From contig QCMT01000002.1 of NCBI GenBank assembly GCA_003213625.1, positions 22,152-86,151 of the forward strand: a stretch of DNA of 64,000 nt. Reading direction: 5' to 3'. The position numbers were made by a program, and so were the translations under genes. Positions 1,258 to 54,111 of the stretch are shown here, one piece after another; positions within the stretch are counted from its first letter, which is position 1, and every line of letters begins with the position of its first letter. A model generated the notes under the pieces. That model made no database searches. It was given only the letters and a program-made list of their open reading frames with translations, and had not been told where the DNA came from. The DNA comes from OCS155 cluster bacterium AG-422-J23. GTDB taxonomy: Bacteria > Actinomycetota > Acidimicrobiia > Actinomarinales > Actinomarinaceae.

Positions 1258-1973
1258 AATTTCATTGTATTTAGTAAATCTTTTATTTCTACCAGTCCTT
1301 TGTAATTTAAAACACTTTCGCTCATTGAGTTAATGCTATCCAATATTTTTGGATCCCAAACATCTATTAATGGAAATACCTCAACTTTAATTAAAAACAA
1401 ACTTGTATTTTCATCAATTGGTGTTGAGGTTTGTGTCTCAACTCTAAAATAAAGATTTTCAAAAGTTGTTAAATCTGGTTTTTTTAGTTTTGGATGTTCA
1501 CTCAATTCTTTACTAGTTGTTACGGTCCAGACCCATCTTTGTATTGTTTGTTTGCACATGTATTCTGAAAGTTTTTGACTAGAGGCAATCAACTTTGAAT
1601 TATCAGCCACAGGTTCATGAATAAATGCAAAATTTTTGCCTAGTTTTTCAGAAAAATCCCAACCACTTGGAAAACATATTGATCCAAGCTCCATATTTCC
1701 ATTGAACATTATTGCGAAGTCTTCTTCTAATCTACGTGATAAGTCTTTAATATTAAGTGTCTTTTCAAAGTTAAAAAATACTAATAATTTTTCAAGTAAA
1801 TTATTTTCTTTTGATATGGTCGTTTGACCAAAAATACTGTCTTCAAAAAAATTAAATTGTTTTTCTTTGTCAATCAAATATCGTTTATCAGGATTTTTAT
1901 TGTAAATGGGACCGTCAAACCTTGTCATTGAAGGATTGTTTGTAAATGGAACTTTTACATAATCTAATTTCAT
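1254..1973 (-). CDS. hypothetical protein
   Basis: 239-aa ORF, coupled to the downstream gene; no family recognised by eye. Confidence 0.6.
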   Translation of the reverse strand: MKLDYVKVPFTNNPSMTRFDGPIYNKNPDKRYLIDKEKQFNFFEDSIFGQTTISKENNLLEKLLVFFNFEKTLNIKDLSRRLEEDFAIMFNGNMELGSICFPSGWDFSEKLGKNFAFIHEPVADNSKLIASSQKLSEYMCKQTIQRWVWTVTTSKELSEHPKLKKPDLTTFENLYFRVETQTSTPIDENTSLFLIKVEVFPLIDVWDPKILDSINSMSESVLNYKGLVEIKDLLNTMKL

Positions 1974-2004
1974 TATTATTAAGTTTATATAAAGGAGAAA
2001 AATT

Positions 2005-2742
2005 ATGGATGCCGGAGTTCTTTTACTTCATGGATTATTTGAACATAAAGGAAGACATCAAATCAATTCAGACTGGTTTGAAAATTTAAATATTTCACCA
2101 CACTCCATTGACCTTCCTGGACATGGTGAAGAAACAATAATTAAGGGCCATATTGATTCGTGGGAGGAAAATAATGAAGCATTAAAAAATGGTTTTCGAA
2201 ATTTAAATAACCATGGTAAGAAAATTGTTTTTGGCCATTCTTATGGAGCATTAATTGCAACCTATGGAGTAATTAACGAAATAATTAAACCTGATTACTT
2301 AATTTTGTCTGCACCATTATTTAAAGATAATTATCCAAAATTTATGAGATCTCTCTCAAGACCACTTGGAAACATAGCACCAAAATTAAGAACAATATCA
2401 CCTATAACAAAACGAAATTTATCAACTGATAAAGATGTTGTAGTTGATTACTTTAAAGATCCATTAGTTTTTCGAACATTTACTTTTAGGTTGGGTGCTG
2501 AAATTGCATTTGTGCAAGATTATGTACAAGAAAATATAAATAGATTGACTATACCAACAATTGTTCTTCATGGTGATAATGACAAAGTTTGCCCAATTGA
2601 TGGGAACAAAGAAATTTCTAAATTAGAAAATGTAAGGTTTGTTACTGTAAATAACTCTATGCACGAAATTTTGAACCAAGATACAAGAATGTTTGTTCTT
2701 AGCGAGATACATGAATGGTTAAAGGATAACAATTTAATATAA
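2005..2742 (+). CDS. alpha/beta hydrolase (lysophospholipase/monoacylglycerol lipase-like)
   Basis: LLLHG oxyanion region, GHSYGA nucleophile elbow, C-terminal HGDND...MHE. Confidence 0.75.
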   Translation: MDAGVLLLHGLFEHKGRHQINSDWFENLNISPHSIDLPGHGEETIIKGHIDSWEENNEALKNGFRNLNNHGKKIVFGHSYGALIATYGVINEIIKPDYLILSAPLFKDNYPKFMRSLSRPLGNIAPKLRTISPITKRNLSTDKDVVVDYFKDPLVFRTFTFRLGAEIAFVQDYVQENINRLTIPTIVLHGDNDKVCPIDGNKEISKLENVRFVTVNNSMHEILNQDTRMFVLSEIHEWLKDNNLI

Positions 2743-2796: not shown

Positions 2797-3723
2797 ATGC
2801 ACGTACCAGACGGATTTATAAACGCACCAGTATCTGCAGCAACTGGATTAATTAGCCTTGGAACTATTTGGGCTTATATAAGAAATGCAAAAAATTTAGT
2901 TGCTGATCGATTAATAGCATTGACAGGAATGATGTCAGCATTAATTTTTGTTTTACAGATGATCAATTTTCCAATTGCAGCTGGAACTAGTGGTCATCTT
3001 CTTGGAGGTGCATTAGCAGTAATTGTACTTGGACCAAGTCTTGGAATTATTTGTATTTCTATTGTTGTTGTCATACAGTCTCTTCTTTTTGCTGATGGAG
3101 GTTTAAGTGCCCTCGGTGTAAATTTACTTAATATGGCTGTAGTGACTTCACTTATTGGATGGTTAGTAATATCTACATGGAAAAAATTATTTAATGAGAG
3201 TTACTCATCAATAATTTCTGGTTCATTTATAGCTGGTTTATTGTCAGTTGTTTTTTCATCAATAGCTTTTGTGCTTGAATATGCTATTGGAGGTACAGTC
3301 GCTGTACCACTTGGAAGTGTATTGATTGCAATGGTTTCAAGCCATGTATTAATTGGTATAGGAGAAGGAATTATTACTGGTTTGATTGTTTCTCTACTTT
3401 TAAGGGTTCGCTCAGATTTAGTCTATGTTAATCAAAATAAAGAAATTAAAAATAATGCAACTTCATTTTATGGAATATTTATTCTGTTGATTTTGTTACT
3501 GACATTGATCACACCATATGCATCATCATCGCCAGATGGACTTGAATCTGTCGCAGAATCTTATGGTTTTAATGAAGAATCTGGAATAGTTTTGTTTTTA
3601 GATGATTATGGAATTACAAATATTAATAATAATTTTTTATCAACTGTTCTAAGTGCTGTTCTAGGAATCGTTGTGATAGTTGTTTTATTTAATATATATA
3701 TAAAAGTTAAAAACAAGAATTAG
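2797..3723 (+). CDS. cbiM: CbiM/NikM-type ECF metal (Co/Ni) transporter S-component fused to a C-terminal PDGLE domain
   Basis: ATG at 2797 chosen so that the N-terminus is MHVPDGF (the canonical CbiM/NikM metal-binding N-terminus). Polytopic. C-terminal SSSPDGLESVAE motif plus a final TM helix. Confidence 0.8.
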   Translation: MHVPDGFINAPVSAATGLISLGTIWAYIRNAKNLVADRLIALTGMMSALIFVLQMINFPIAAGTSGHLLGGALAVIVLGPSLGIICISIVVVIQSLLFADGGLSALGVNLLNMAVVTSLIGWLVISTWKKLFNESYSSIISGSFIAGLLSVVFSSIAFVLEYAIGGTVAVPLGSVLIAMVSSHVLIGIGEGIITGLIVSLLLRVRSDLVYVNQNKEIKNNATSFYGIFILLILLLTLITPYASSSPDGLESVAESYGFNEESGIVLFLDDYGITNINNNFLSTVLSAVLGIVVIVVLFNIYIKVKNKN

Positions 3724-4057
3724 AGTGGGAAAAAATTTATTATTTTTTTTTGAAATCTTTAGATATTTTATTTATCTTTAAATTAACTTTTTGTGAAGAA
3801 AATCTTTATAGAGGATCATTACAAGAAGGGTAAGAGATAACCCTTGAAGAAGTGAGTTTTGGCAACAAAACAAGCGGAGTATTCAAGGGTTTTCTCATTT
3901 TTACTAACATTGTTCTTTTGTTTAACTTCTATTTAATTCAATAATTCATAATTAAATTAAATACTACGCTACTCCCTTAAAGTTGTTGGTATACAAAAAC
4001 TCCCCAGTTATGAAGAACTGGGGCGTTCAGAAAAATAATTTATATTAATATTTTGAT

Positions 4058-4636
4058 ATGACTTCAAAAAATCAATTGGAACTGCTTCATAAAGAATGCA
4101 GGAAGTGCAAAGAGTGTTCACTCGCAAAAACTAGAACCAATGTTGTAGTAGCAAAAGGTAATCCTGATGCAGAAATTTTAATAATCGGTGAAGGGCCAGG
4201 AGAACAAGAGGATATTACTGGTTTTCCTTTTGTAGGTAGAGCTGGAAAAATGTTGGATTCAGCTCTTAACTCAGTCGAAATTGATCCTCTAGAAGATTGT
4301 TATATTACAAATATTGTGAAATGTAGACCTCCTAACAATAGAAAACCGTCTTTAGAAGAAGCCAAGTCTTGTATTCCTTGGCTTGATAAACAAATCGATT
4401 TTTTAGATCCTAAAATTATTGTGCTTGCAGGATCTACAGCTGTTGAGTCTTTTCTCAATATAAAACAACCAATATCCAAAATTAGAGGCGAATGGATTGA
4501 AAAAGATGATATCAAAGTGATGCCAATTTTTCACCCATCATATCTTTTAAGAAATCCGTCAAAAGAACCCGGTAAACCAAAATGGTTAACTTGGCAAGAT
4601 TTAAAAAAAGTTAAAAAGGTATACGATAGCTTTTAG
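4058..4636 (+). CDS. udg: uracil-DNA glycosylase, family 4
   Basis: CRKCKEC cluster, GEGPGEQED motif, HPSYLLR motif. Confidence 0.85.
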   Translation: MTSKNQLELLHKECRKCKECSLAKTRTNVVVAKGNPDAEILIIGEGPGEQEDITGFPFVGRAGKMLDSALNSVEIDPLEDCYITNIVKCRPPNNRKPSLEEAKSCIPWLDKQIDFLDPKIIVLAGSTAVESFLNIKQPISKIRGEWIEKDDIKVMPIFHPSYLLRNPSKEPGKPKWLTWQDLKKVKKVYDSF

Positions 4637-5541
4637 TCTGAAAATTCATCCTTGGTTGTTAACAACAGAGAAGCAAAAATAAATAGGCTTGATATCAATA
4701 TATTTCTGTTAAATGTCTCTCCTAAAAATAGAACCCCTGCTGTAACACCAACCACGGGTACTAAGTAGTCAATACTTGCCACTTGCAAAGCACTAACTCT
4801 TTGAATAAGCCATGTAAATGAAAGAAAAGCTCCAAGATTACATACAACAAGTGCTACTAATCTCAAAAGCTGAGATAGATTTAAGATATCTATACCTACA
4901 CCGGAAATAAAGAATGTAAGCAAAGTCAAAATTATTACAAGTGGGTACTGAAATGTTAGCCAACTGTTTACCTTATACCTAGGTGCATATTTTCGATTTA
5001 GGACTGTAGCAAGAGCAATACATTGGACGCCAAGAAATGCTAATGATCCTCCTAAAAAAATATTTCCTTGATTAAGCAGTCCAGTTTCTTGTGAAATAAA
5101 CAAGTATGCTATGCCTGAAAATCCAACAACAACTGATAAATATTTAAGTTTTGATATCTTTTCTTCTTTTAAAATAAGCTTGACCCACATTGCCGTAAAA
5201 ATTGGTGCTGAGCTTATTAATAAAGTGACAAGACCAGATGAGATATATTGTAGTGCGAATATAAATGCCCAACTAACAAAAAATATTGAGGCCAATCCAG
5301 TAAATGAAGCTTCTTTAAGAAGTTGTTTATCAAATTTATCTTTATTGAAAATAATATAATATGAAAAAAGTAGCGTACCAATTATTAGTACTCTCGCAGT
5401 TACGAGGAAAATTTCATTAAGCCCTTCTAATAAAAGACTTCTTATAATTACATTTCCAGATCCCCACATTACACCTGCAGTTAAAACAGCTGAAATTGTT
5501 TGAATTAAAGAAGGTTTTTGAAGAAGATAATTATTTTTCAT
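4633..5541 (-). CDS. EamA/DMT family transporter
   Basis: 302 aa, about 10 TM helices arranged as two repeats. Confidence 0.75.
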   Translation of the reverse strand: MKNNYLLQKPSLIQTISAVLTAGVMWGSGNVIIRSLLLEGLNEIFLVTARVLIIGTLLFSYYIIFNKDKFDKQLLKEASFTGLASIFFVSWAFIFALQYISSGLVTLLISSAPIFTAMWVKLILKEEKISKLKYLSVVVGFSGIAYLFISQETGLLNQGNIFLGGSLAFLGVQCIALATVLNRKYAPRYKVNSWLTFQYPLVIILTLLTFFISGVGIDILNLSQLLRLVALVVCNLGAFLSFTWLIQRVSALQVASIDYLVPVVGVTAGVLFLGETFNRNILISSLFIFASLLLTTKDEFSD

Positions 5542-5604
5542 TATTGAGATGTTAATAATAAATTATAGATAGGTTGTTTATTCAAAATTTAAACTAATAT
5601 ATAA

Positions 5605-5700
5605 CTAACGGGAGCAGTAGAGCTGAGAGGGTTAAAAACCGACCGTATGAACCTGTTAGGTAATTCTAACGAAGGGATATTCGGTACTCTTATCCCATTT
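5605..5700 (+). promoter_or_regulatory. TPP (THI-box) riboswitch
   Basis: acGGGAGC..GCTGAGAGG..ACC..GAACCTGtTaGGTAATtCTAaCGaAGGGAta matches the conserved THI element blocks. It sits directly 5' of the transporter, whose SD/start (gaggtaattGTG) follows. Confidence 0.85.
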
Positions 5701-5716
5701 ACGAAATGAGGTAATT

Positions 5717-7096
5717 GTGCAAATTAGTGCAGATGTTTTAATAAATTATATTTTAATCTTTTTCATCCTTTTACTATTTCTTGTTTTAACGAGAAAACTT
5801 TCAAATAAAGAAGTTGGGGATGGATATTTTGTGATGTTAAAATCTCAAAATACTTTTAATTTGAGTCTTAGCTTTTACGCAAGTGGTATGGGACTTTGGA
5901 TTATTGCTTCTCCAGCGGAGGTCGGCTGGTATGGTTTAGGTTTTGATGTAATAGGTTACGCTATTTCAGCTGCAACACCTTTTGGACTGCTTTATTTTCT
6001 GGGTCCTAAAATTGTTGAAGCTGTACCAGATAAGGCAACACTACCTCAATATATAAACAAACAATACGGTAATTTTGCACAAATTTTTGTTTCATTAGTT
6101 GCAATCATCTATATGTCAGCTTTTTTAATTGCTGAATTTGCATCAATCAACTTTCTTTTTCCAGAGATATCTAACACTTCAGGCCTAATTGTTTGTATAG
6201 CAATAGCACTAGTCACATTCCTATATTTAAACTTGTCGGGTTTCAAAGCATCTTTAATTACTGATAGATTTCAGGGGATCTCGATAATTATTCTATTATT
6301 TATAGTTTTTTCTCTCTGGATTAGTCAAAACGGTTTAGGAGAAATTATCAAAGCAGCAAACATTGGAGGACTTAATTCATTCACACTTCCTAGCTTTAAA
6401 TCTGCTGTTGCAGTTATCCTTGCAGTGACTGCAGCTGAAATTTTTTCACAAGGTTACTGGCAAAGAACTTACTCAGCATTAGACGATAGCGTAATAAAAA
6501 AATCTTCAATTTTTGCAGGTCTTGGATGTTTTTTAACTGTACTAATACTTGGGATTGCTGGATCGTCAGGTGCTGGTTTTGGAATTGAGAACCCATCATT
6601 AAGTTTTATTCAACAAATACAATTAAATACTTTCTCAAGAATACTTGTTATAGGCCTTTGCACAATGTTGGTTGCATCAAGTATCGACACACTACAAAGT
6701 GCAATATCATCAACAATGGCTTTAGATATTGTCAAAAGTGGTGTTGCTGAAGCAAAAATAATCACGCTGGTTATAACATTTGGATCTTTAACCTTGTCGT
6801 TTTTTGTTACAAATATTTTTTCAGTTTTTTTATTTGCTGATTTACTAGCAGTATGTTTGGTTTTTCCAGCGTTTTATAAAATCCGCATGAGAAAAACAAG
6901 TCAAGGTATTGTGATTCCATTTTCACTAGGATTTGTTTCATCAATATTATATAGATTTAATTATGTTGATCTAAATATAAATCCTGGGGGGTTGTTTATA
7001 CCGACTGACATTTATGGACTTGCTGACTTAAATACTTTTGGTGTAGGTTTTATATTCTCTATAATTGGCACACTGCTTTACAACAGAATAAAATAA
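5717..7096 (+). CDS. sodium:solute symporter (SSS) family transporter, candidate thiamine-precursor importer (ThiV-like)
   Basis: 459 aa, polytopic, GTG start; placed under the TPP riboswitch. Confidence 0.7.
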   Translation: MQISADVLINYILIFFILLLFLVLTRKLSNKEVGDGYFVMLKSQNTFNLSLSFYASGMGLWIIASPAEVGWYGLGFDVIGYAISAATPFGLLYFLGPKIVEAVPDKATLPQYINKQYGNFAQIFVSLVAIIYMSAFLIAEFASINFLFPEISNTSGLIVCIAIALVTFLYLNLSGFKASLITDRFQGISIIILLFIVFSLWISQNGLGEIIKAANIGGLNSFTLPSFKSAVAVILAVTAAEIFSQGYWQRTYSALDDSVIKKSSIFAGLGCFLTVLILGIAGSSGAGFGIENPSLSFIQQIQLNTFSRILVIGLCTMLVASSIDTLQSAISSTMALDIVKSGVAEAKIITLVITFGSLTLSFFVTNIFSVFLFADLLAVCLVFPAFYKIRMRKTSQGIVIPFSLGFVSSILYRFNYVDLNINPGGLFIPTDIYGLADLNTFGVGFIFSIIGTLLYNRIK

Positions 7097-22190: not shown

Positions 22191-22211
22191 ATTTTCCTTT
22201 CTCACCACGAG

Positions 22212-22345
22212 AAAAAGTACGATACTCCATTCCTTCTCTCGAGGATTGTTGTAAAAAGTAATAAAGTCGACCTGACTTATCTTTCGAATTACAGTTGCGG
22301 GACAGCGCTAGATTCTCACTAGCTTCGCTTTGTTACTTTGTTTAT
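22212..22345 (-). promoter_or_regulatory. cobalamin (B12) riboswitch
   Basis: Minus strand reads ..GAAGCtAGTGAGAATCTaGCGCTGTCCCGCAACTGTAA..AAGTCAGG.. . This is the conserved GCxGxCCCGCAACUGUAA core (plus-strand coordinates 22289-22306) and a B12-box-like AGTCAGG (22271-22277). Confidence 0.8.
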
Positions 22346-22368
22346 TTAGTGGTTAAGTGTAGCAAAAA

Positions 22369-51344: not shown

Positions 51345-51815
51345 ATGTATTCGATATGGGTTGAATCTTCTTCAAAGCAATTGACTCAAATAAAAAAAGT
51401 AATCAAAACTTTATCAGAGGAAGAGAATAAAGACTACTTTGAGCCTCATGTCACACTAGTAACAAACTTAAATTCAGAACATTCAGCTATGAATGTATTT
51501 GATAAAATATCGAAGAAGAGATTTGATATCACATTTGATACAATCCAAGAAGGAACGACCTACTTTCAACGACTTTTCTTAACATCCACAGATAATACAA
51601 ATTTTCAAAACTCAATAATTGATATAGAGGGATGGCCTAGTCTATGGATTCCTCATCTGTCACTTTTTTACGGGAACGAGTTACCAAAATCTTATCCATC
51701 TAAAGATTTTGATAATCTCATTCCCGTAACCGTTACGTTTGATACATTAGTACTGTCAGAAACAGGCCCTATAGTATCGAAGTGGAAGGAGATAACCACT
51801 TTATTTTTGGACTGA
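51345..51815 (+). CDS. 2H phosphoesterase superfamily protein (cyclic phosphodiesterase-like)
   Basis: Start moved to ATG 51345; two H-x-(T/S)-x motifs (HVTL, HLSL). Confidence 0.6.
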   Translation: MYSIWVESSSKQLTQIKKVIKTLSEEENKDYFEPHVTLVTNLNSEHSAMNVFDKISKKRFDITFDTIQEGTTYFQRLFLTSTDNTNFQNSIIDIEGWPSLWIPHLSLFYGNELPKSYPSKDFDNLIPVTVTFDTLVLSETGPIVSKWKEITTLFLD

Positions 51816-53156
51816 CTCCAAAGCAACTTTTACCTTTTCAGCAGGGAAATCATAATCAATTATTTCACCACTTAAGAAGTTCTCATATGCTTTCATGTCA
51901 AAATGTCCATGACCACACATTGCTGTCAAAACAGCTACTTGCTCAGATCTTTGATCAGCATCTTTTACTGCTCTGATTGCTGAAGCTATAGCGTGAGTAG
52001 CTTCAGGTGCTGGGACAATACCTTCAGTTTTTGCAAAGAGCTGACCAGCTTCAAAACATTCTCGTTGACCAATTGCTTCGGCCTCGATCAGATTATCTTC
52101 ATACATAGCACTTACCAATGGAGCCATGCCATGATATCTTAAACCACCAGCATGTATGGGGTCAGGCACAAAACTGGATCCAAGAGTATGCATTTTTACA
52201 ACTGGTGCCATACCTACAGAATCTCCAAAATCATACGTATAAACACCTTTAGTCAAAGATGGACACGCTTGAGGTTCCACAGCTCTAATAATGGTTTTTT
52301 TATTTGACTCCATATTGTTTTTTGCAAAAGGAGAAAATAATCCAGTAAAGTTTGATCCCCCACCTGTGCAACCAACAATTATATCTGGATAGTCTTCTGC
52401 CATTTCCATTTGTTTTAAAGCCTCTAAGCCAATAATTGATTGGTGCATTAGAACATGATTTAAAACACTACCCAAGGCATATCTAGTTCCTTCTTCTTTT
52501 CTAGCTACCTCTATAGCCTCAGAAATTGCAATACCTAAGCTTCCAGGTGTATTTGGATCCTGAGATAAGAATTGTTTCCCAATATCTGTTCTTTCAGATG
52601 GACTAGGGTGAACTGTTGCACCATAAATTTCCATCATTGTCTTTCTATGAGGTTTAGAGGCATACGAAGCTGCTACTTGAAAAACTTCAAGCTCAATACC
52701 AAACGCTTGACATGCGAAAGATAAAGCAGAACCCCACTGACCCGCACCCGTTTCAGTAACCATTTTCTTAACACCCTCTTCAGCGTTGTAAAAAGCCTGA
52801 GGAATTGCAGTATTTGGCTTATGTGAACCAGAAGGAGACCCACCTTCATACTTGTAATATATTCTTGATTTTGTACCTAATGCTTCCTCCAACCTTAAAG
52901 CTCTATACATTGGAGAAGGTCTGTATATCTTATATAATTCCAAAACAGGCTCTGGAATATCAATATAGTTTTGGTCAGATACCTCCTGCAATATAAGACC
53001 CATTGGAAATAAAGGTGCTAAATCTTCAGGACCAATAGGCTCCATAGTTTGAGGGTTTAATTGCGGTGGTAAAGGGTTTGGAAGATCTGGGACTATGTTG
53101 TACCACTGTTTAGGAATATCACTTTCATTTAGTAGATATTTGTATTGTTTTTTCAT
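51801..53156 (-). CDS. trpB: TrpB2-type tryptophan synthase beta-like PLP enzyme
   Basis: 451 aa (long TrpB2 form); GGSPSGSHKPNTA PLP-lysine motif; GCTGGGSNF. Confidence 0.88.
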   Translation of the reverse strand: MKKQYKYLLNESDIPKQWYNIVPDLPNPLPPQLNPQTMEPIGPEDLAPLFPMGLILQEVSDQNYIDIPEPVLELYKIYRPSPMYRALRLEEALGTKSRIYYKYEGGSPSGSHKPNTAIPQAFYNAEEGVKKMVTETGAGQWGSALSFACQAFGIELEVFQVAASYASKPHRKTMMEIYGATVHPSPSERTDIGKQFLSQDPNTPGSLGIAISEAIEVARKEEGTRYALGSVLNHVLMHQSIIGLEALKQMEMAEDYPDIIVGCTGGGSNFTGLFSPFAKNNMESNKKTIIRAVEPQACPSLTKGVYTYDFGDSVGMAPVVKMHTLGSSFVPDPIHAGGLRYHGMAPLVSAMYEDNLIEAEAIGQRECFEAGQLFAKTEGIVPAPEATHAIASAIRAVKDADQRSEQVAVLTAMCGHGHFDMKAYENFLSGEIIDYDFPAEKVKVALESVQK

Positions 53157-53212
53157 TTTTACTCCTTAGCTTTTTGGGTTGAGCCCGGAGTTTTAATTTC
53201 AGTGACAGTAAT

Positions 53213-53234
53213 AAAAAAACCGGGCTGTGCCCGG
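53213..53234 (-). terminator. intrinsic terminator (attenuator) inside the trpB2 5' leader
   Basis: Minus strand: ccgggc-aca-gcccgg followed by ttttttt, about 57 nt upstream of the trpB2 ATG. Confidence 0.8.
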
Positions 53235-53262
53235 TTTAAGAACTAACTAGTGGGGCACCTAC

Positions 53263-53304
53263 CTATGTAGTTGACCACCAATTCCAGCTAGTTATATATT
53301 TCAT
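53263..53304 (-). CDS. trpL: Trp-rich leader peptide (13 aa) of the trpB2 attenuator
   Basis: ATG AAA TAT ATA ACT AGC TGG AAT TGG TGG TCA ACT ACA TAG = MKYITSWNWWSTT. Three Trp codons within four; the stop abuts the antiterminator segment. Confidence 0.7.
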   Translation of the reverse strand: MKYITSWNWWSTT

Positions 53305-53382
53305 ATTTAATAACATACCAAATAAACTTTAAGATACAAAATTCATTTAAGTAAAAATCTTATCTCTTCTATTCTTTATAAA

Positions 53383-54111
53383 GTGGAAAAAATAATAGAA
53401 GCAAAAAACCTTACAAAGGTTTATGGAGAAGATGGAACATCAGTTACAGCATTAAACAATGTAAATCTTGATTTTTATGAAAATAAATTTACAGCAATTA
53501 TGGGTCAGTCTGGATCAGGCAAATCAACTCTTCTCCACTGTCTTGCAGGATTGGATAAAGTTACTTCAGGATCAATTTTTGTAAAAGGTGTTGACCTAGG
53601 AAGCCTTAACGACAAAGAATTAACAAAAATAAGAAGAGACTCTTTTGGGTTTGTATTCCAAGCTTTCAATTTAATACCAACATTAACTGCAGAGGAAAAC
53701 ATCACACTACCCTCTTCAATTGCAGGAAGAAAACCTGATGAAGAGTGGATAAACCAAATTGTTAATACCGTAGATATTGGAGATAGATTAAATCATCGAC
53801 CAAATGAACTTTCAGGAGGTCAGCAACAAAGGGTCGCTGCTGCACGAGCAATGGCAACAAAGCCAGAAGTAATTTTTGCTGATGAACCATCAGGAAATTT
53901 AGACTCAAAATCAAGTAAGGAACTATTAACTTTTATGAAATCTGTTGTCAAAGAGTTAAATCAGACCATAGTTATGGTGACACACGATCCTTTCGCTGCA
54001 TCATTTGCTGAGAGGGTAATAATGCTAAAAGATGGAGAAGTAGCAAGTGATATGGAAGACCCATCTCAAGAAGAGATTATCTCAATGGTCACATCCTTAA
54101 GCGATATTTAA
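53383..54111 (+). CDS. ABC transporter ATP-binding protein (MacB/FtsE-like)
   Basis: GTG start; GQSGSGKST, LSGGQQQRVAAARA, IFADEPSGNLD. Confidence 0.9.
   Translation: MEKIIEAKNLTKVYGEDGTSVTALNNVNLDFYENKFTAIMGQSGSGKSTLLHCLAGLDKVTSGSIFVKGVDLGSLNDKELTKIRRDSFGFVFQAFNLIPTLTAEENITLPSSIAGRKPDEEWINQIVNTVDIGDRLNHRPNELSGGQQQRVAAARAMATKPEVIFADEPSGNLDSKSSKELLTFMKSVVKELNQTIVMVTHDPFAASFAERVIMLKDGEVASDMEDPSQEEIISMVTSLSDI

Follow-up and report, generated by a model that had tools for sequence, protein, structure and literature searches.

What controls a trpB2 gene that stands apart from any trp operon, and what does the short tryptophan-rich reading frame ahead of it do? These questions are raised by a 64,000-nucleotide (nt) stretch of Candidatus Actinomarina (the window, by which we mean this whole stretch), whose minus strand we read over 53700-51500. 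An initial annotation of this DNA had proposed that trpB2 is preceded by an attenuator with the logic of E. coli trpL, in which a leader open reading frame (ORF) with tryptophan (Trp) codons decides between a terminator and an antiterminator. Our analysis showed that the leader element is real and goes beyond a chance pattern, and that all the parts of such an attenuator are present and conserved in relatives. The evidence consists of the ORF, three alternative helices, conservation together with covariation, and the identity of the gene, as obtained from sequence and comparison. It is highly probable that the element works as a ribosome-mediated (leader-peptide) transcription attenuator of the trpL class. 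It would make trpB2 expression depend on how much charged tRNA-Trp is available, the response to Trp being predicted from the arrangement of its parts.

The leader and its conservation in relatives

The leader peptide, the codons UGG AAU UGG UGG, segments 1 to 3, the terminator and its U7 were found, base for base, where the initial annotation had placed them (Table 1). The leader ORF reads ATG AAA TAT ATA ACT AGC TGG AAT TGG TGG TCA ACT ACA TAG, and it is the sole short ORF with clustered Trp codons among those located between the listed long ORFs of the window. Directly after it comes GGTAGGTGCCCCACTAGTTAGTTCTTAAACCGGGCACAGCCCGGTTTTTTT, followed by the 56-nt spacer, the Shine-Dalgarno (SD) sequence AAGGAG and the 451-codon ORF of trpB2. 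A simple terminator scan returned a hairpin of 9 pairs, 6 of them G-C, with a loop of 3 and a T run after it. The sequence TGGNNNTGGTGG, for which 0.21 copies are expected in the window, is present three times; both of the further copies lie within a long ORF. No second copy of the leader was found in the window by a covariance model search, and the spacer sequence occurs once in the window and was absent from the viral contigs searched.

Table 1. Parts of the trpB2 leader and the gene behind it (positions in the window)
Feature	Positions	Strand	Remarks
-35-like hexamer TTGTAT	53334-53339	minus	16 nt upstream of the -10 box
-10 box TATGTT (TAnnnT), TGG before it	53312-53317	minus	ends exactly 7 nt ahead of the leader ATG
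Leader ORF, 13 codons and stop, MKYITSWNWWSTT	53263-53304	minus	ATG at 53304, TAG at 53265-53263
Putative regulatory Trp codons UGG AAU UGG UGG (W7, W9, W10)	53275-53286	minus	
Segment 1, 5' arm of the 1:2 hairpin (anti-antiterminator, probable pause hairpin)	53267-53293	minus	Trp codons inside
Apex hairpin CUAC-AUAG-GUAG	53259-53270	minus	leader stop codon inside
Segment 2, GUGCCCCACUAGUUAGUU	53241-53258	minus	5' part GUGCCC (53258-53253) is the antiterminator arm; the remainder pairs with segment 1
Segment 3, GGGCAC	53227-53232	minus	four terminator 5'-arm bases and two loop bases; partner GUGCCC
Intrinsic terminator (segments 3:4), AAACCGGGC-ACA-GCCCGGUUU and U7	53213-53237	minus	hairpin 53237-53217, U7 end 53213
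56-nt spacer	53157-53212	minus	3' end is the trpB2 SD AAGGAG (53167-53162)
trpB2, TrpB-like pyridoxal phosphate (PLP) enzyme, 451 amino acids (aa), predicted regulated gene	51801-53156	minus	ATG at 53156

A scan of species-representative genomes gave 23 Actinomarina loci with TrpB2 proteins 84-99% identical. TrpB2 is 99% identical in four Actinomarina single-cell genomes, which places the window in this genus, and the next relatives, from high-GC Acidimicrobiia and other phyla, reach at most 64%. We divided the leaders into group A (the window and L001-L012), group B (L013-L022 and L029) and group C (L202, a lineage of 78% identity). The leader mini-ORF was found upstream of trpB2 in all 23 species loci, with its frame, start and stop position kept. 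It was also found on at least 24 metagenome contigs, on the 1.14-Mb contig L205, which has a group B leader, and in L202. L202, L203 and L205 came from a protein search and contig look-ups. The metagenome scan used the pattern TGGTGGN{4,6}CTACATANGTAG and samples group A only (at least 24 group A leaders), because the corresponding gap in group B is 3 nt, which places that group outside the scan. Another 55 TrpB2 loci, drawn from other phyla, all lacked the Actinomarina-type leader. L204 (66% identity, 60% G+C) has no convincing leader, only a possible W-T-W mini-ORF 200 nt upstream.

The group A leader peptides follow MK[NY][IV][TI][SN]W[NH]WW[STI][TS]T and a stop; those of group B read MYKVTNWNWW[TI]LHM, MIHSNNWSWWTLHM or MYKTNNWNWWKLHM, each followed by a stop. 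The tandem WW never changes in groups A and B, and all other codons vary, with K/Y/N, I/V, T/I/N, S/N, N/H/S and S/T/I/K found in the neighbouring codons. W7 is replaced by L in L012 and by F in L092, L140 and L170. The L202 leader, MYKLNSWNWPDSHM and a stop, has W-N-W-P, with a terminator as in groups A and B. The reading frame, start and stop position are retained despite indels between the groups (13 versus 14 codons), and the terminator is kept in all lineages with a group A, B or C leader.

The degree of conservation was compared between the window and L005, L008, L010 and L012. The leader is 90-98% identical in these pairs, as against about 40% (saturated) at the four-fold sites of trpB2. 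The spacer is likewise conserved in group A (91-98% identity, against about 40% at four-fold sites), and groups B and C do not have it. It contains no ORF and had no match in Rfam or sequence searches. Read on the plus strand, the spacer resembles a terminator hairpin with a T run (53172-53190). On L205, the TTG start of a divergent gene with a tRNA_edit domain (1825-2406, minus strand) overlaps the leader ORF and promoter of trpB2; this call is probably over-extended.

Upstream of the leader ATG, a TAnnnT box ends exactly 7 nt before it in the window, in 22 of the 23 species loci, in L202 and in L205; the distance is 8 nt in L020. The variants include TATGTT, TACATT, TAACTT, TAGATT, TATAGT (L202) and TAAATT (L205). 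A TTGnAn-type hexamer stands 16 nt upstream of the box; this distance is shared by groups A and B, between which the promoter region is only 56-69% identical. The TTGTAT of the window is consistent with the actinobacterial -35 consensus ttgnca (PMC3890552). Groups A, B and C lack an SD sequence ahead of the leader ATG; trpB2 is preceded by AAGGAG or GGAGG. The sigma-A -10 element of Corynebacterium glutamicum is TAnnnT, located 3-11 nt from the start; in that species 33% of mRNAs are leaderless, and the leader peptides of trpE, leuA, ilvB and aroF were detected by RNA-seq (PMC3890552). The 7-nt distance from TAnnnT to ATG and the absence of an SD suggest that transcription starts at or beside the A of the ATG. 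The leader ORF is thus probably translated from a leaderless mRNA, with the transcription start placed by the conserved spacing.

Another in-frame ATG is present at 53314-53316 (minus strand), 12 nt upstream of the leader start and within the -10 box TATGTT, which would yield MLLNMKYITSWNWWSTT. This ATG is confined to lineages with the -10 box TATGTT, and we therefore take 53304 as the conserved leader start.

Alternative folds and covariation

The 154-nt leader folded at -45.4 kcal/mol, compared with -32.3 +/- 3.7 kcal/mol in shuffled sequences (z = -3.54), and none of 200 shuffles was as stable. The isolated 1:2, 2:3 and 3:4 helices had energies of -20.7, -8.8 and -13.8 kcal/mol, respectively, and the three pairings are mutually exclusive. 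The pairing of segments 1 and 2 held, but its minimum-energy register differs from the one first described: it is AACUAGCUGG:CUAGUUAGUU, the former at 53293-53284, and continues through the Trp codons to the apex hairpin CUAC-AUAG-GUAG. The register of the initial annotation is equally possible because UAGUU is repeated. The apex hairpin, CUAC-NNNN-GUAG, contains or abuts the leader stop codon.

Constrained folding gave the three states expected of an attenuator. The free RNA formed the long 1:2 hairpin together with the terminator in every one of the 20 distinct leaders folded, as well as in the window, and the minimum-energy fold of L202 retained the inner part of the 1:2 hairpin. A stalled ribosome was modelled by masking the Trp codons and folding only the RNA transcribed up to segment 3. 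Under this model the GUGCC(C/U):GGGCAC antiterminator formed in 21 of 21 distinct leaders (the 20 and L202), with energies between -5 and -13 kcal/mol. With the ribosome masking the stop codon, no stable structure formed and the terminator won, again in the 20 leaders and L202. The proposed competition of GUGCCC:GGGCAC with the terminator is supported by the mutually exclusive folds and by the covariation described below.

The spacing of the parts agrees with these states. A ribosome covers about 12-13 nt beyond its A site. The A-site Trp codon lies 19 nt ahead of segment 2 in both groups, and the distance from the stop codon to segment 2 is 6 nt to GUGCCC in group A and nil in groups B and C, where the stop abuts GUGCC. 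A ribosome on the Trp codon would thus leave segment 2 free, and one at the stop, 0-6 nt before segment 2, would cover it.

Substitutions at paired positions within group A all preserve the pair, and 99% of the alignment cells are paired, via G-C/G-U and A-U/G-U changes. A covariance model (R1) built from group A detected groups B and C at 36-61 bits, and found nothing else in the window. In the 23-sequence alignment, 94.4% of the cells of the terminated-state structure are paired, a value somewhat inflated since the alignment was fitted to this structure, and four pairs (12 cells) are changed on both sides. None of 500 shuffles reached the covariation score, which is to be taken as support and not as a probability because the leader sequences are related; the slid controls were 32-53% paired. 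The alignment was not fitted to the antiterminator, which is 98.5% paired over 23 distinct leaders with four double-change cells, as against 27-53% in slid controls, and here too none of 500 shuffles reached the score. Alignment of the orthologs thus bore out the initial annotation, in the WW of groups A and B (W-N-W-P in L202) as well as in the compensatory stem changes.

Over the 23 distinct leaders the outer pair of the antiterminator is G-C in 17, C-G in three, U-A in one and mismatched in two; C-G is found in L092, L095 and L120, and C.C in L008, L010, L011 and L114. The 3' partner that varies in this pair sits in the middle of the terminator loop (ACA to AGA). Since this loop base has no role in the terminator, the change of the outer pair is explained only by the 2:3 pairing. 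The apex hairpin is invariant in groups A and B, and in L202 it is UCAC-AUAU-GUGA, with two pairs changed on both sides.

Taken together, these results suggest the following course of events. Transcription would start about 7 nt after the TAnnnT box, with the A of the leader AUG as the probable first base, so that a ribosome can load at the 5' end without an SD. When Trp is sufficient, the ribosome would pass UGG-AAU-UGG-UGG and reach the UAG in the apex hairpin, where its footprint would cover GUGCCC. Segments 3 and 4 could then pair, and the terminator with its U7 would release a transcript of about 92 nt. When Trp is scarce, the ribosome would stall on the Trp codons, covering segment 1 and ending about 6 nt short of GUGCCC. 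GUGCCC would then pair with GGGCAC as soon as this is made, no terminator would form, and RNA polymerase would read into trpB2. With no translation at all, the 1:2 hairpin would lock segment 2, and termination would result again.

Two further pairings involve the spacer. A 4:5 pairing, of the terminator 3' arm GCCCGG with a CCGGGC copy in the spacer (-12.7 kcal/mol), would free the SD in transcripts that read through; constrained folding does not favour it, and it is considered unsupported. In the minimum-energy fold, ACUCC of the spacer pairs with GGAGU of the trpB2 SD. Covariation gives no support to this hairpin, whose fifth pair is lost in relatives (A-U to U.U or U.C).

The putatively regulated gene and its dikinase-like neighbour

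The trpB2 product matched NF009057 at 697 bits (cut-off 366) and TIGR01415 at 608 bits (cut-off 519) as a full-length protein, and did not reach the classical trpB model TIGR00263 (142 bits, cut-off 392). The gene is therefore of the TrpB2 type, as had been annotated. Among solved structures, the Sulfolobus TrpB2 entries 6HUL, 4QYS and 6HTE come closest (E values of 1e-125 to 1e-114, compared with about 1e-32 for TrpB1 chains), and the PLP-lysine motif SGSHKPN is present in the translation. The gene is under strong purifying selection, with a ratio of nonsynonymous to synonymous substitution rates (dN/dS) of 0.02-0.06. Its neighbours are a divergent MacB/LolD-type ATP-binding cassette (ABC) exporter and a convergent CPDase-like gene beside a ZnuABC-type transporter.

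No other trp gene was found in the 64-kb window, where the E. coli proteins TrpA to TrpE, used as tblastn queries, matched only trpB2. The KEGG group of TrpB2-type enzymes is presumably K06001. Actinomarina and the Actinomarinales have been described as uniformly Trp-auxotrophic (PMC7771536; bioRxiv 10.64898/2026.04.03.716425). K01609, K01657, K01658, K01695, K01696 and K13503 are scored in none of the 84 complete Actinomarina genomes in the supplementary table of the latter, in which K06001 does not occur. The view that trpB2 here is not part of a trp operon thus agrees with both the window and the published genomes. With the six queried groups at 0 of 84 and K06001 absent from the file, trpB2 appears to be the only trp enzyme of the genus and to have been overlooked in published reconstructions. 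TrpB2 proteins at 83% identity were found on contigs of 1.07 and 1.14 Mb.

The initial annotation had called this trpB2 a lone gene. This holds for the window genome, and the window lineage (with L001-L004 and L012) has trpB2 only; in many sister species, in contrast, the leader would drive a two-gene operon. There, a gene of about 745 aa follows trpB2 by 4-7 nt on the same strand (L005-L011, L013-L016, L114, L149, L159, L167, L184 and L203; in L010 the two-gene locus spans 3001-6595, with the 745-aa gene at 4358-6595). Its product has a C-terminal phosphoenolpyruvate (PEP)-utilizer swivel domain and a weak N-terminal PPDK_N signal, and scored 483 bits on PRK05849, just below the cut-off. Its best solved relatives are 5FBS and 5HV1-5HV3, deposited as 'phosphoenolpyruvate synthase', which we take to be the Listeria rifampin phosphotransferase. 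An aligned GG..(S/T)H motif is conserved in it, presumably the holder of the phospho-histidine. To judge from these matches, the protein is a rifampin-phosphotransferase-like dikinase, with an ATP-grasp and a phospho-His swivel domain. Its homologues available for alignment were all close (86-97% identity). The gene was also considered as a foreign replacement of trpB2; this was rejected, since many species normally have it directly behind trpB2.

In natural populations the locus is polymorphic for gene presence, as the metagenome leaders showed. Of the at least 24 leaders, 15 precede trpB2, four directly precede the dikinase gene and five precede neither. In L120, L151, L131 and L141 the leader is followed by the dikinase gene with trpB2 deleted; L131 retains the first four trpB2 codons, and the L141 dikinase gene has an early stop. 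Both genes are gone in L092, L095, L140, L170 and L152. In all nine, the leader ORF, the antiterminator and the terminator are intact. Between L120 and L131 the dikinases share 73% identity and have saturated four-fold sites, and the two 92-nt leaders differ at only about five positions. The dikinase-only arrangement thus also looks maintained. About 20 nt of the trpB2 3' end are repeated after the dikinase gene (L005, about 6620-6650), and such a repeat may mediate rearrangements or deletions.

Since no other trp gene is known from the genus, TrpB2 most likely makes Trp from scavenged indole and serine or O-phosphoserine. The use of O-phosphoserine by TrpB2 was reportedly described by Busch et al. 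in 2014. We regard indole-to-Trp salvage as the somewhat favoured purpose of the switch, which would limit this salvage to Trp shortage. Stand-alone TrpB2 enzymes have been proposed to salvage indole, and the TrpB2 of Thermococcus kodakarensis was reported in indole salvage (Hiyama et al. 2014, as cited in PMC11085991).

The dikinase raises the question of whether the attenuator works while TrpB2 in vivo serves another end, such as a different beta-replacement, a deamination or a reaction carried out jointly with the dikinase. The same leader would drive trpB2 together with the 745-aa dikinase gene in many species, and some lineages keep leader and dikinase without trpB2, so that the regulon is not simply 'Trp synthase'. 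We nevertheless consider such a role unlikely, since a Trp-codon attenuator is the classic mark of a gene that relieves Trp shortage, the protein is a full-length TrpB2 equivalog whose nearest solved relatives are Sulfolobus TrpB2, the T. kodakarensis enzyme is reported in salvage, and the window genome keeps trpB2 without the dikinase. As an idea, the dikinase could make O-phospho-L-serine for TrpB2 (the genus is reported without serC), or could activate another scavenged precursor. A broader reading, in which the leader marks a Trp-starvation regulon of trpB2 and the dikinase, the dikinase is a new Trp-salvage enzyme, and Actinomarina is no strict auxotroph but an indole-dependent Trp producer whose populations differ in the half of the module kept, is quite improbable as a whole.

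Other explanations and known systems

Several points weigh against a working attenuator. Group A alone is thin on covariation: a single pair has changed on both sides, and its score is reached by 23 of 500 shuffles. The leader sequences compared are also closely related. The Trp codons also lie in a helix and, as UGG is the sole Trp codon, part of their conservation could be structural. If the full RNA is folded to equilibrium with a ribosome on the Trp codons, the outcome is still the terminator. Of the two helices the antiterminator is the weaker (-8.8 kcal/mol, terminator -13.8 kcal/mol), and it is much weaker in L020 (-5 kcal/mol). The decision must therefore be kinetic and set by the co-transcriptional order, as in E. 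coli. Nine of the at least 24 metagenome leaders no longer precede trpB2, and because these leaders outlast the gene intact, the presence of a leader is no proof of current function. Finally, L203 (77% TrpB2 identity) has a WW leader, MRPIQSSNWWPIGQI and a stop, with no U-tract terminator.

In L203 (1-205) the hairpins are different, including two small G+C ones. The called trpB2 start of this contig is probably 21 nt too far upstream, since the SD GAGGAA precedes the second ATG.

The intact-looking leaders at sites where trpB2 has been deleted (L092, L095, L140, L170 and L152), together with a terminator that dominates thermodynamically, would fit an evolutionary relic or a constitutive leaky terminator, with trpB2 not regulated by Trp. 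This is very improbable, since the leader has stayed 90-98% identical where neutral sites are saturated, the changes at paired positions are compensatory or preserve wobble pairs, the architecture is retained over groups A, B and C with different stem sequences, and trpB2 itself is under strong purifying selection.

Our search of known RNA families returned no candidate for the element. Over 52900-53600, cmscan against Rfam at E <= 10 gave only six chance-level matches to unrelated families, and none to RF00513, RF01692 or RF00230. At gathering scores, the whole window contained only a thiamine pyrophosphate (TPP) riboswitch and an adenosylcobalamin (AdoCbl) riboswitch, both elsewhere. The former (5598-5694, plus strand) is upstream of the ORF at 5717-7096, and the latter (22221-22353, minus strand) is upstream of a minus-strand gene cluster ending at 22208. 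As the genus is reported without thiamine biosynthesis, these riboswitches probably control transport or salvage genes.

Two known Trp-responsive systems were considered and rejected. A T-box (RF00230) gave no covariance-model match. The TRAP site of the Bacillus type needs 9-11 (G/U)AG repeats, 2-3 nt apart, whereas the leader has five UAG triplets at irregular gaps of 22, 1, 9 and 1 nt, so that neither number nor spacing fits.

These results bear on the explanation that the RNA senses Trp or uncharged tRNA-Trp directly or via a protein (as a T-box, a TRAP-like element or a riboswitch), with the mini-ORF incidental and untranslated. We give it little credence. The hairpins do show conservation of their own, no SD precedes the leader ORF, and with the UGG codons in a helix their conservation alone does not prove decoding. 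However, neither a T-box nor a known Trp element was matched, and the start codon, frame and stop position are kept across groups with indels, as WW is in L203, where the surrounding RNA differs. The ATG fixed at 7 nt from the -10 box fits leaderless translation, and unrelated trpB2 leaders of Bacteroidota encode WWW followed by a terminator.

The element resembles E. coli trpL (RF00513) in having a short ORF in which three codons separate the tandem Trp codons from the stop, four segments with 1:2, 2:3 and 3:4 pairings, a segment 3 that overlaps the terminator, and an antiterminator weaker than the terminator. It differs in that it shows no sequence or covariance-model similarity to trpL, its ORF has no SD and is probably leaderless, it has a third Trp codon (W-x-W-W), the whole device takes 92 nt, and it would control a single TrpB2-type gene in an organism without trpEDCBA.

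Within the same phylum, classical trp attenuators have been predicted for the trp operons of Corynebacterium and Streptomyces and for Streptomyces trpS (Seliverstov et al. 2005, PMC1262725). They share with the Actinomarina element the mechanism, two or three UGG codons and G+C-rich terminators with U tracts (PMC1262725). However, they are found in high-GC genomes, ahead of trpS or of complete biosynthetic operons, and follow a gGCC-rGCy-GGCC pattern, whereas the Actinomarina element uses CCGGGC/GUGCCC/GCCCGG ahead of an orphan TrpB2 gene in a streamlined genome of 34% G+C; no sequence is shared. The leaderless leader peptides of C. glutamicum are similar in that they lack an SD and have a TAnnnT -10 element within a few nt of the start codon (PMC3890552), with the difference that the Actinomarina transcription start is placed only by the 7-nt spacing. 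The mechanism is thus classical and already known in Actinobacteria, and the element itself matches no Rfam family. Cys-rich leaderless short ORFs also exist in mycobacteria.

In two Bacteroidota loci, L045 (about 2820-2990) and L060 (about 2800-2990), a stand-alone trpB2 is preceded by a WWW mini-ORF and a strong intrinsic terminator. Neither leader matched an Rfam family at gathering score, Bacteroid-trp (RF01692) included. They are like the Actinomarina leader in having a Trp-rich mini-ORF and a strong terminator directly before a stand-alone TrpB2-type gene, but show no sequence similarity to it. This suggests an independent origin, so that the design of a Trp leader with an orphan TrpB2 arose more than once. 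As for the enzyme, the Actinomarina protein is a full-length member of the family of Sulfolobus solfataricus TrpB2a/i/o (6HUL, 6HTE and 4QYS) and of the Thermotoga and Thermococcus enzymes. Those organisms have a complete trp pathway, whereas the Actinomarina TrpB2 appears to be the only trp enzyme, under a putative Trp-sensing switch.

The mechanism described here is ordinary; it is the host context and the variable trpB2/dikinase module that make it of interest. The physiological role of orphan TrpB2 has so far been based mostly on enzymology, and the leader adds regulatory evidence from within the genome, as the gene placed behind Trp codons would be the one wanted when tRNA-Trp is uncharged. 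As a compact natural attenuator of 92 nt, putatively responsive to Trp, it also provides a covariance model suited to the annotation of marine metagenomes. In nature the module is polymorphic, being found as trpB2 alone, trpB2 with the dikinase, the dikinase alone, or neither. Actinomarina, still uncultured, is among the most abundant and smallest free-living marine bacteria, and its streamlined genome of 1.1 Mb still pays for a cis-regulatory device of 150 nt. The published picture of fixed Trp auxotrophy is qualified by the trpB2 gene and its switch in many species, and the presence of this switch would predict cross-feeding on indole.

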